The translations under genes and the position numbers were made by a program. A stretch of 64,000 nucleotides of DNA from a phage. The stretch lies in sequence record PZ386948.1. The stretch is one strand, 5' to 3'. Numbering within the stretch: the first letter of the stretch is position 1; the number at the start of each line of letters is the position of its first letter. Below are positions 35,615 to 36,868 of this stretch, one piece after another. Under the pieces are notes generated by a model. It saw only the letters and a list, made by a program, of their open reading frames with translations, searched no databases and had not been told where the DNA came from.

Positions 35615-35690
35615 TGGTCGAGGCAGTAGGGATCGAACCTACGACCTAGGACTTAGAAGGTCCTTGCTCTTCCTTCTGAGCTATGCCCCG
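35615..35690 (-). tRNA. tRNA-Arg (anticodon UCU)
   Basis: Manual cloverleaf: acceptor CGGGGCA/TGCCTCG, anticodon loop CTTCTAA, T-arm GTAGG-TTCGATC-CCTAC, 3' ACCA. Confidence 0.8.
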
Positions 35691-35694
35691 TAAT

Positions 35695-35781
35695 TGGGGT
35701 GACCGATGGGAGTCGAACCACCCGAGTCGCAATGACAATGGATTTACAGTCCACACCGCTACCTCTACGGGATAACTCCCC
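35695..35781 (-). tRNA. tRNA-Tyr(GUA)-like class II element, probably degenerate
   Basis: Canonical anticodon arm GTGGA-CTGTAAA-TCCAT, long variable arm, TTCGACT T-loop and 3' CCA, but acceptor and T stems pair poorly. Confidence 0.4.
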
Positions 35782-35794
35782 TTAATTCTTAATT

Positions 35795-35869
35795 TGGTGG
35801 CCCTGGGTGGAATTGAACCACCATCTGGCGATTATGAGTCGCTTGCTTGAACCTTCCAGCTACAGGGCC
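35795..35869 (-). tRNA. tRNA-Ile/Met (anticodon CAU)
   Basis: Acceptor GGCCCTG/CAGGGCC, anticodon loop CTCATAA, T-arm GGTGG-TTCAATT-CCACC, 3' ACCA. Confidence 0.75.
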
Positions 35870-35870
35870 T

Positions 35871-35946
35871 TGGTGCTGATTGACGGAATCGAACCGCCGA
35901 CCTTCTCATTACAAGTGAGTTGCTCTACCTACTGAGCTAAATCAGC
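35871..35946 (-). tRNA. tRNA-Thr (anticodon UGU)
   Basis: Acceptor GCTGATT/AATCAGC, anticodon loop CTTGTAA, T-loop GGTTCGATTCC, 3' ACCA. Confidence 0.8.
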
Positions 35947-35951
35947 AAAAC

Positions 35952-36041
35952 TGGCGGAGGCGATAGGATTTGAACCTATGAGTCGCCGGAGCGACTGCCG
36001 GTTTTCAAGACCGGTGCATTAAACCACTCTGCCACGCCTCC
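35952..36041 (-). tRNA. tRNA-Ser (anticodon UGA), class II
   Basis: 90 nt; acceptor GGAGGCG/CGCCTCC, anticodon loop CTTGAAA, long variable arm, T-loop GGTTCAAATCC, 3' GCCA. Confidence 0.8.
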
Positions 36042-36047
36042 AAATAT

Positions 36048-36698
36048 TTATATATTGTTAATTTGATTTAGAATTCTTTTTGCTTGAGTATGACTTACGC
36101 CAATATGCTTAGCATATTTAGACAATTCGCCACGTTTAGAAAAATCATATAATTTAGAAATTTCTATTCTTCTTTTTCTTTCATCCGCAGAAACTTTTGC
36201 TTCGTTTGCTTTTGCTATTTTACGTTTAGCTTCTTGAGAATGAGTTTTACCAGCAAAGCCATTCTTCATTAATCCATTTGAAGACCATCCTTTTAATTTT
36301 CCGTTAGAATGTGCCTTTTTAACACCCAATGAAATTAATTCGCGTTGCTGATCTGTCATAGGATAATTATTTATATGATCCCATCCACCTTCACCTCCAA
36401 GTTTTAAATTATACACATCTGGTCTATTTAAAAACTCTTCTGTGACAATATTTTTCTCGGCTTCAAGCATAGATTCTTTATCGTCAAAATACTCTAATAT
36501 TTCTTTAGAAAAATTTTCTATACCATATTTATCTTGGGCTCTTTTTAATAATTTACCAGAACCCATATATCCATCATCTAAATTTTCGGTAGAATGCACA
36601 CCAATATAAATTTTATTATTAATTTTATTTGTTATTTTATAAAGATAAAAATGCATATCAGTCCCTAATAAAGAACTGAGCGTCTCACGACGAGTCAT
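36048..36698 (-). CDS. segB: GIY-YIG homing endonuclease (SegB-like, within the tRNA cluster)
   Basis: 216 aa; N-terminal GIY-YIG module (YLYKITNKINNKIYIGVHST...GYMGSGKLLKRA); lies between tRNA genes as segB does in T4. Confidence 0.75.
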   Translation of the reverse strand: MTRRETLSSLLGTDMHFYLYKITNKINNKIYIGVHSTENLDDGYMGSGKLLKRAQDKYGIENFSKEILEYFDDKESMLEAEKNIVTEEFLNRPDVYNLKLGGEGGWDHINNYPMTDQQRELISLGVKKAHSNGKLKGWSSNGLMKNGFAGKTHSQEAKRKIAKANEAKVSADERKRRIEISKLYDFSKRGELSKYAKHIGVSHTQAKRILNQINNI

Positions 36699-36702
36699 AA
36701 AT

Positions 36703-36776
36703 TGGAGCGGATAATGAGAATCGAACTCACATCATCAGATTGGAAGTCTGAGGTAATACCATTATACGATATCCGC
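36703..36776 (-). tRNA. tRNA-Gly (anticodon UCC)
   Basis: Acceptor GCGGATA/TATCCGC, anticodon loop CTTCCAA, T-loop AGTTCGATTCTC, 3' TCCA. Confidence 0.8.
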
Positions 36777-36781
36777 AAATT

Positions 36782-36868
36782 TGGTGCGAGAAGTGGGACT
36801 CGAACCCACAAGGAAATCATTCCGCAGCATTTTAAGTGCTGTGCCTTTACCAATTTGACCATTCTCGC
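36782..36868 (-). tRNA. tRNA-Leu (anticodon UAA), class II
   Basis: 87 nt; acceptor GCGAGAA/TTCTCGC, anticodon stem-loop CAGCA-CTTAAAA-TGCTG, long variable arm, T-loop GGGTTCGAGTCCC, 3' ACCA. Confidence 0.8.

Follow-up and report, generated by a model that had tools for sequence, protein, structure and literature searches.

A mosaic tRNA operon in a T-even phage, with endonuclease genes in the slots of tRNA-Gln and tRNA-Pro and a Tyr/His hybrid pseudo-tRNA

Which transfer RNA (tRNA) genes has the tRNA operon of this T-even phage lost, and did the two endonuclease genes found inside it remove them? The operon lies on the minus strand of a 64,000-nucleotide stretch of phage DNA (sequence record PZ386948.1; the whole stretch is called the window below), of which positions 34800-37600 match, at 100% identity, the sequence of Shigella phage CM8 (MK962750.1 / NC_054939.1; Straboviridae, Tequatrovirus), a phage obtained from chicken meat in Ireland; we refer to the locus by that name, and subtracting 32108 from a coordinate of the CM8 record gives the window coordinate. 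In the public record of CM8, the locus is already marked with six tRNAs, with a 'SegB-like protein / homing endonuclease' and with an 'HNH endonuclease', and no feature is annotated at the Tyr/His hybrid described below. By comparison with its relatives, the CM8 tRNA operon appears to be one mosaic allele of a hypervariable locus. Compared with the fullest related layout, Gln-Leu-Gly-Pro-Ser-Thr-Ile(CAU)-Tyr-Asn-His-Arg, three independent events very probably separate CM8 from its relatives, namely the exchange of tRNA-Gln for an HNH gene, the exchange of tRNA-Pro for a SegB-like gene and a deletion between tRNA-Tyr and tRNA-His, of which the first two are likely to have occurred by homing. 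A sequence-only reading of the window had proposed endonuclease-driven remodelling of the locus. This proposal is supported, as endonuclease genes fill the exact slots of tRNA-Gln and tRNA-Pro, and we infer that the enzymes caused both replacements; the case for an endonuclease role in the deletion is circumstantial.

ARAGORN, run on the whole window, called six tRNAs, all on the minus strand, and no further tRNAs in the window. Rfam at its gathering threshold returned the identical six with 59-73 bits, and these are the same six that the sequence-only reading had listed:

36782-36868, minus strand: tRNA-Leu(UAA) (ARAGORN, Rfam)
36703-36776, minus strand: tRNA-Gly(UCC) (ARAGORN, Rfam)
35952-36041, minus strand: tRNA-Ser(UGA) (ARAGORN, Rfam)
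35871-35946, minus strand: tRNA-Thr(UGU) (ARAGORN, Rfam)
35795-35869, minus strand: tRNA with CAU anticodon, Ile2-like, labelled Met by ARAGORN (ARAGORN, Rfam)
35615-35690, minus strand: tRNA-Arg(UCU) (ARAGORN, Rfam)

Because the closest E. coli match of the CAU tRNA is an annotated tRNA-Ile (81.6% over the full length), this tRNA is of the Ile2 type, and the earlier label 'Ile/Met' was suitably cautious. The absence of the tRNA-Gln and tRNA-Pro of T4, also claimed from the letters, holds by every method applied: neither was called by ARAGORN, neither is hidden at 34300-38200, even below threshold, in a permissive Rfam scan, and BLAST of the window with T4 tRNA-Gln and tRNA-Pro gave zero matches. 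That permissive scan returned one extra tRNA-like match (35708-35779, 22.7 bits, below the cut-off of 29), which is the degenerate Tyr-like element noticed earlier and is further resolved below as a Tyr/His hybrid. The layout is not that of T4, which reads Gln-Leu-Gly-Pro-Ser-Thr-Ile-[segB]-Arg. Thus, the claimed difference from T4 stands, but T4 is not the best comparator, as the nearest relatives have 9-10 tRNAs and CM8 also lacks Tyr, Asn and His. Layouts taken from annotated relatives, and from ARAGORN run on them, are as follows in transcription order (psi, hybrid pseudo-tRNA):

T4: Gln Leu Gly Pro Ser Thr Ile [segB] Arg, then rnaD-rnaC
T2L: Gln Leu Gly Pro Ser [trna.1] Met Tyr Asn Arg
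T6: Gln Leu Gly psi(Pro/Thr) Met Tyr [segB] Arg
KIT03: Gln Leu Gly [SegB-like] Ser Thr Met Tyr Asn His Arg
RB51: Gln Leu Gly [SegB-like] Ser Thr Ile Tyr Asn Arg
slur03: [HNH] Leu Gly Pro Ser Thr Met Tyr Asn His Arg
JEP6: [HNH] Leu Gly Pro Ser Thr Met [segB] Arg
BP32: [HNH] Leu Gly Pro Ser Thr Met Tyr [segB] Arg
Ec_O157kw: [HNH] Leu Gly [SegB-like] Ser Thr Met Tyr Asn Arg
PBM-1: [HNH] Leu Gly [SegB-like] Ser Thr Met Tyr Asn His Arg
CM8: [HNH] Leu Gly [SegB-like] Ser Thr Met psi(Tyr/His) Arg

From this comparison of layouts, CM8 appears to be a PBM-1-type allele with one further segment deleted, and it is missing Tyr, Asn and His besides Gln and Pro when set against its nearest kin. The HNH gene and the SegB-like gene between Gly and Ser occur together only in CM8, PBM-1 and Ec_O157kw; BP32 and JEP6 were rejected as carriers of both CM8 endonucleases, as they combine the HNH gene with a T6- or T4-type segB at a different site. 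A separate difference is seen in RB51 (1202-1276) and Ec_O157kw (834-908; both locus coordinates), in which tRNA-Arg begins 4 nucleotides after tRNA-Asn, and in which tRNA-His and the 117-nucleotide spacer found in KIT03, PBM-1 and slur03 are both absent. The Asn and Arg tRNA sequences of RB51 are divergent, and the absence of tRNA-His from the two phages would be further presence/absence variation within the array.

The HNH gene that had been said to abut tRNA-Leu does so, just beyond the stretch that the tRNA genes themselves occupy, and the position that it fills is that of tRNA-Gln:

37490-37496, minus strand: tRNA-Gln remnant, the first 7 nucleotides, TGGGAAT (in the KIT03/T4 alignment, homology ends after Gln nucleotide 7)
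36872-37489, minus strand: HNH homing-endonuclease cassette, 618 bp, replacing tRNA-Gln nucleotides 8-71 (alignment, tblastn, PHROGs, similarity to T5 F-TflIV)

The anatomy of the locus, the allelic relations and the breakpoints are read directly from the alignments. Homology with KIT03 and T4 is uninterrupted from the operon leader through Gln nucleotide 7 (37496-37490) and returns 3 nucleotides before tRNA-Leu, with the last 2 nucleotides of Gln and a 1-nucleotide spacer. Compared with KIT03 and T4, 64 nucleotides of tRNA-Gln are exchanged in CM8 for 618 (37489-36872). The cassette is minimal, consisting of a 6-nucleotide leader, a 609-nucleotide open reading frame (ORF; 36875-37483, 202 amino acids) that terminates 6 nucleotides short of tRNA-Leu, and 3 further nucleotides. 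The fragments of tRNA-Gln that still border the cassette mark the HNH allele as the derived state.

The encoded protein matches PHROG 14736 (E=5e-124) and ten more HNH PHROGs, and its Pfam HNH score is below threshold (17.3 bits; cut-off 21.4). Its CxxC...DH...N...CxxCH core aligns with that of T5 F-TflIV, with C..C, DH, N and CPNCH all kept. By its sequence, with the core and its flanking CxxC pairs present, the ORF product is a member of the HNH (His-Me finger) endonuclease family; sequence searches of the PDB with this protein and with the SegB-like protein returned nothing meaningful. A tblastn search found the HNH protein at least 95% identical in 64 phage records, and at least 99% identical in 59 of these. 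When the cassette with 100 nucleotides on each side was used as a query, and any record covered over at least 80% of it was counted as a carrier, the same number of 64 carriers was obtained, in agreement with the tblastn count and placing the gene at this site in all 64, and all eight of the eight carriers sampled were covered 100% without a break. In ∼457 other records (of ∼520), the flanks alone match, 255 bp apart and with tRNA-Gln between them, and these flanks are up to 100% identical, as in T4 and RB5. HNH and tRNA-Gln therefore present as a presence/absence polymorphism at a single site with breakpoints within tRNA-Gln, and they are alternative alleles of that site. Because the flanks can be identical, any self-immunity of the HNH allele would have to be due to the loss of the Gln nucleotides that it replaced, or else to a site farther away.

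The second gene, described by the sequence-only reading as a GIY-YIG segB-like gene between Gly and Ser, is found there and passes the Pfam threshold for that domain; the slot that it occupies is that of tRNA-Pro:

36042-36697, minus strand: SegB-family GIY-YIG cassette, 656 nucleotides, in the tRNA-Pro slot (5' untranslated region (UTR) plus ORF 36048-36656, 202 amino acids from the annotated start)
36658-36679, minus strand: 9-bp hairpin just 5' of the SegB-like ATG, holding a likely Shine-Dalgarno sequence, AGGGA

From Gly to Ser, slur03 and T4 read Gly-CCA ATTTA / ATTTA-Pro-CT / Ser, and CM8 reads Gly-CCA ATTTA / cassette / Ser. The cassette is found at this site in 56 records, and most other records have Gly-Pro-Ser with flanks up to 100% identical. 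Hence, the SegB-like gene is also a presence/absence polymorphism at one site between near-identical flanks, and the cassette and tRNA-Pro are alternative alleles between Gly and Ser. The start of the 5' UTR, ACTCGTCGTGAGACGCTCAGTT, loosely resembles a tRNA 5' end; it was considered as a remnant of tRNA-Pro and rejected, because this UTR is also found behind tRNA-Tyr in T6 and behind tRNA-Gly in a Klebsiella phage, so that it belongs to the cassette.

The SegB-like protein scores 26.8 bits against Pfam PF01541 (GIY-YIG; cut-off 22.6) and matches PHROG 314, 'homing endonuclease', with E=2e-54. It retains Y17 and G19, the residues mutated in the study of T6 SegB (PMC13096335), and it belongs to the Seg GIY-YIG family. 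Its NUMOD3 score is 20.1 bits, just short of the cut-off of 20.4, and it has a C-terminal helix-turn-helix-like stretch in common with the HNH protein and with T2L trna.1. Over residues 1-96, it has 96% identity with T4 SegB and 99% with T6 SegB (97-98% in nucleotides), and after a sharp break at nucleotide 289, residues 97-202 are unrelated to both; this second half is 80% identical to a Klebsiella Jiaodavirus orthologue. The 5' UTR including the hairpin is common to the segB genes of T6 and BP32, but not to that of T4, and the 9-bp hairpin is kept in T6, BP32 and the Klebsiella phage KP13MC5-5 with pair-preserving changes and may have a regulatory role. In the RB51 record (2009), a 'truncated SegB-like protein' is annotated. 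Three of the module combinations are compared here:

CM8: UTR-A / catalytic / C-term-A, between Gly and Ser
T6: UTR-A / catalytic / C-term-B, between Tyr and Arg
T4: UTR-B / catalytic / C-term-B, between Ile and Arg

Because CM8, T6 and T4 differ in UTR, C terminus and site, at least three module combinations circulate. With another DNA-binding domain and another insertion site, the CM8 gene is not a strict orthologue of T4 or T6 segB. Its full-length orthologue is an unannotated 202-amino acid GIY-YIG gene in Klebsiella Jiaodavirus KP13MC5-5 (OP617748.1; 1713-2321, plus strand, locus coordinates). Identity is 72% over the N-terminal and 80% over the C-terminal half; the Klebsiella gene lies between tRNA-Gly and tRNA-Pro, shares the 5' UTR and hairpin with CM8, and has a stop region that overlaps the 5' end of tRNA-Pro.

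The C termini of the two CM8 endonucleases have features of their own in common. A helix-turn-helix-like motif is present in both the HNH (36920-37003) and the GIY-YIG protein (36051-36140), with 12 of 24 residues identical (E=2e-4), and both proteins match PHROG 16521. The same PHROG is matched by T2L trna.1 (AJ880101.1, 584-985), which encodes 133 amino acids, was given in 2008 as an 'ORF of unknown function' (PMC2330249), and is a nuclease-less homologue of the C-terminal half of the CM8 SegB-like protein (33% over 115 amino acids, E=8e-16). The shared motif and family hint at a common DNA-binding module among endonucleases of the tRNA cluster.

The third departure from the fullest layout is the fused gene between the CAU tRNA and tRNA-Arg:

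35695-35781, minus strand: Tyr(5')/His(3') hybrid pseudo-tRNA, 87 nucleotides, crossover GGTTCGACTCC at 35709-35719 (sequence comparison)

The first 74 nucleotides of the hybrid are those of a PBM-1-type tRNA-Tyr, including its private AAATCC variant, the last 13 are those of tRNA-His, and the sequence reads through the junction as CATCGGTCACCCCA. The Tyr and His parents share exactly GGTTCGACTCC in their T arms, at a spacing of 268 bp in PBM-1 and 269 bp in slur03; the hybrid thus appears to have been made by a clean 268-bp deletion between identical 11-nucleotide direct repeats in the T-loops. What is deleted in CM8 comprises the 3' end of Tyr, tRNA-Asn, the 117-nucleotide spacer and most of His. 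The predicted fold of the hybrid is without an acceptor stem, compared with 7 bp in each of the parental tRNAs, and the hybrid does not qualify as a functional tRNA, as it is not called by ARAGORN and stays at 22.7 bits in Rfam (cut-off 29). The crossover GGTTCGACTCC also matches the published SegB core GGTTCRANTCC (PMC2330249). Among 50,697 phage records searched with a 35-nucleotide junction probe, of which a 28-mer across the junction was required, full matches were confined to the two copies of the CM8 record, and the exact junction gave 0 matches in IMG/VR. A parallel is found in T6 (AP018814.1; 4143-4217, minus strand, locus coordinates), in which the gene annotated as 'tRNA-Thr' is a Pro(5')/Thr(3') hybrid arising from a deletion between 9-nucleotide D-arm repeats (TAGCTCAGT), with tRNA-Ser lost; its acceptor strands are unpaired, and it too is not called by ARAGORN. 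Because the T6 hybrid parallels that of CM8, fusions between tRNAs recur in the T-even locus.

Previous work on SegB bears directly on how these alleles could arise. Homing and gene conversion by SegB in T-even tRNA clusters have been known since 2008 (Brok-Volchanskaya et al., PMC2330249), and that work was extended in 2026 (PMC13096335). T4 SegB has a 27-bp recognition site whose core, GGTTCRANTCC, is the T-loop; it cleaves the 3' ends of many tRNA genes and favours T2L tRNA-Asn, and in crosses of T4 with T2L, segB was inherited in nearly 100% and T2L tRNA markers were lost (PMC2330249). The cut sites of T6 SegB are enriched in RAWTSGAAC, the reverse complement of the T-loop sequence, and amplification of the tRNA-Tyr/segB segment depends both on its nuclease activity and on the phage recombination proteins UvsX and UvsY (PMC13096335), an amplification by which the phage escapes Septu (Chihara et al. 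2026, PMC13096335).

Cleavage by the CM8 HNH and SegB-like proteins, their targets and the cause of the deletion would, on our analysis, fit together as follows. In the first event, a minimal free-standing HNH cassette would have replaced nearly all of tRNA-Gln and, in the second, a SegB-family GIY-YIG cassette would have replaced tRNA-Pro; both are presence/absence alleles circulating in T-even phages, most likely spread by homing. During a mixed infection, the enzyme would cut the endonuclease-free allele in or beside the tRNA gene, and repair of the break from the endonuclease-carrying genome would replace the tRNA gene and destroy the target, each enzyme being expected to target the tRNA gene that it replaced, or its junctions. 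The third event, private to CM8, would be a recombination between T-loop repeats, in which a 268-bp deletion fused 5' tRNA-Tyr to 3' tRNA-His with loss of tRNA-Asn. A break of the SegB type may have set it off, given that the repeat coincides with the recognition core and that the site favoured in tRNA-Asn falls within the deleted interval.

Several observations weigh against this account. The orthologous gene of KP13MC5-5 stands between tRNA-Gly and an intact tRNA-Pro, so that loss of tRNA-Pro is not obligatory upon insertion, and the flanks of the CM8 SegB-like cassette are without any remnant of tRNA-Pro. Because the DNA-binding domain differs from that of T4 and T6 SegB, the target of the CM8 SegB-like protein may not be the T-loop motif, and the match between repeat and core could reflect the fact that T-loops are the longest repeats in a tRNA array. 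In T4-type replication, short direct repeats give rise to spontaneous deletions with no need for a site-specific nuclease. Finally, the junction is that of a single genome, and an error in sequencing or assembly, or a deletion that arose on passage in the laboratory, could conceivably account for it. For the Tyr/His fusion, we consider the chances about even that it is unrelated to the endonucleases and arose as a spontaneous short-repeat deletion, by replication slippage or illegitimate recombination, which was tolerated as phage tRNAs are dispensable on laboratory hosts. The exact 11-nucleotide direct repeat at the breakpoints is the classic signature of such a deletion, the event is private to one isolate, and the T6 Pro/Thr fusion lies at the D-arm repeat TAGCTCAGT and not at the SegB core motif. 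Against this, the repeat equals the SegB core, the deleted interval includes the tRNA-Asn site preferred by T4 SegB, and the nuclease activity of T6 SegB was needed to rearrange the same locus. A spontaneous origin survives these counterpoints and is about equally likely for the third event, because T-loops are the longest repeats available and the DNA-binding domain of the CM8 enzyme differs from that of the characterised SegB. That the hybrid instead reflects a mistake of assembly or sequencing in the CM8 record is highly improbable: it occurs only in the two copies of that record and nowhere in IMG/VR, but its junction is a clean, in-register one bordered by unique sequence on both sides, and an 11-nucleotide repeat is far below read length, a repeat across which assemblers normally do not collapse.

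For the two replacements, the reverse order of events is conceivable, with the endonuclease-bearing layout ancestral and tRNA-Gln and tRNA-Pro gained by replacing endonuclease genes. The lack of a tRNA-Pro remnant beside the SegB-like cassette would agree with this order, as would the conservation of its Gly-adjacent site in another genus. However, the 7 nucleotides of the Gln 5' end and its last 2 nucleotides that flank the HNH cassette are expected only after insertion into an existing tRNA-Gln, the Gln and Pro alleles are the large majority, and the HNH proteins are 99-100% identical across differing phage backbones, which argues for recent spread of that gene; we thus regard the reversed polarity as unlikely. 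Still less support is found for the view that the reduced tRNA set is an adaptation to the tRNA pool or codon usage of the host, with the endonucleases as bystanders. The retained tRNAs do read frequent A-ending codons in this 35% GC genome: over 59 long ORFs of the window, UUA accounts for 41% of Leu, GGA for 40% of Gly, AGA for 29% of Arg and AUA for 20% of Ile codons. The codons of the lost tRNAs are equally frequent, with CAA at 71% of Gln and CCA at 38% of Pro, so that relaxed demand does not explain the losses. Moreover, every lost gene either has an endonuclease cassette physically in its place or fell within the one deletion between repeats, and close relatives on similar hosts retain 9-10 tRNAs. 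Adaptive loss is therefore very improbable, and replacement of tRNA-Gln and tRNA-Pro by homing cassettes, together with an independent deletion, is the reading that we prefer.

The remaining parts of the operon and its leader are as follows:

37497-37582, minus strand: conserved leader/promoter region of the tRNA operon, 5' of the former tRNA-Gln, near-identical to T4 and KIT03
35246-35596, minus strand: 116-amino acid ORF, equivalent of T2L trna.2, not in T4 (phrog_3355)
35132-35246, minus strand: rnaD stable RNA, 99.1% identical to T4 rnaD
34987-35125, minus strand: rnaC stable RNA, 98.6% identical to T4 rnaC
34913-34936, minus strand: intrinsic terminator-like hairpin at the end of the tRNA operon

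T4 has a middle promoter immediately upstream of its tRNA cluster (PMC2330249), and positions 37497-37582 would serve as a promoter in CM8. Because both endonuclease ORFs end 6 nucleotides before the next tRNA, processing by RNase P would trim the two CM8 endonuclease mRNAs just past their stop codons, and the same trimming has been proposed for T4 segB (PMC2330249). At the distal end, identical terminator-like hairpins (AGCCCCGACCGAAAGGTTGGGGCT plus a T run) at 34913-34936 and 34358-34381 (minus strand) bracket a 157-amino acid ORF (34389-34862) that is not in T4, and a '34 bp imperfect direct repeat' surrounding that ORF is mentioned in the RB51 record; such an arrangement suggests an insertion or duplication of the ORF at the terminator of the operon. 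Directly upstream of the operon, a 171-amino acid ORF (PHROG 2290; 37583-38098, minus strand) is present in CM8 and KIT03, and T4, slur03, PBM-1, BP32 and JEP6 have a 288-bp trna.2-type ORF in its place, so that its position looks like another mosaic boundary at the edge of the cluster. Pfam searches with the 116-, 157- and 171-amino acid ORFs gave no matches, and PHROGs returned function-unknown families only.

Overall, the CM8 locus is a clear and ordinary instance of a known phenomenon and leaves current understanding unchanged; in the literature, we found no paper on the one-to-one exchange of Gln for HNH and of Pro for a SegB-like gene, on the mosaic of SegB modules or on hybrid pseudo-tRNAs. 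Phage tRNA genes are now regarded as a means of countering host defences, among them systems that cleave tRNAs, such as Septu, and the reshuffling of this repertoire by selfish endonuclease genes and by short conserved motifs of tRNAs can be seen here in a single locus: two tRNAs were exchanged for endonuclease genes, and three more were lost via a single deletion at an 11-nucleotide repeat. The CM8 SegB-like protein, moreover, is a natural variant that pairs the catalytic domain of T4 and T6 SegB with another DNA-binding domain and another insertion site, and it would be useful for the study of target choice by GIY-YIG enzymes. A stronger proposal, which we put forward tentatively and hold to be rather doubtful, is that the CM8 enzymes home specifically into tRNA genes (HNH into Gln, SegB-like into Pro) and spread by deleting the tRNA that they cut, with the Tyr/His and T6 Pro/Thr hybrids as footprints of SegB-type breaks annealed at tRNA motifs. 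If this were true, the nuclease activity that amplifies tRNA-Tyr under Septu would also erode phage tRNA repertoires, a cost of selfish elements that would shape anti-defence tRNA content across T-even phages.

Comparison with known systems places the CM8 alleles as follows. The HNH protein resembles the T5 endonuclease F-TflIV (hegA; Akulenko et al. 2004, as related in PMC10644984 and PMC2330249), with 35% identity over 170 amino acids, an HNH zinc-finger core and a C-terminal helix-turn-helix, and the gene for F-TflIV, too, lies directly after a tRNA within a phage tRNA cluster (also PMC2330249). However, T5 is classified in another family of phages (Demerecviridae), the two proteins are distantly similar, and F-TflIV is not known, from these accounts, to replace a tRNA gene. 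T2L (AJ880101), the recipient without endonucleases in the 2008 study, has Leu, Gly, Ser, the CAU tRNA, Arg, trna.2, rnaD and rnaC in common with CM8, but keeps Gln, Pro, Tyr and Asn, is without both endonucleases and has trna.1 in the tRNA-Thr slot. The CM8 SegB-like gene and T4 segB correspond in the catalytic domain (amino acids 1-96, 96% identical; first 288 nucleotides, 97%), in lying within the tRNA operon directly 3' of one tRNA and a few nucleotides 5' of the next, in a ribosome-binding-site hairpin (described for T4 in PMC2330249) and in presence/absence polymorphism among T-even phages. They differ in amino acids 97-202, which are unrelated (23% identity in a forced alignment), in the 5' UTR, in length (202 versus 221 amino acids) and in position, as the CM8 gene replaces Pro between Gly and Ser and the T4 gene lies between Ile and Arg. 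Comparison with T6 SegB shows the same 5' UTR, 99% amino acid identity in the catalytic domain, Y17 and G19, and a place in the same tRNA operon, and its cut-site motif RAWTSGAAC is the reverse complement of the T-loop crossover sequence of the CM8 deletion; it has, in contrast, a T4-type C-terminal domain and a site between Tyr and Arg, and the tRNA-Tyr that is amplified in T6 is lost in CM8. Also close are ∼60 sister genomes (e.g. PBM-1, Ec_O157kw, KIT03, slur03 and RB51), and the CM8 sequence and its gene calls were themselves already public.

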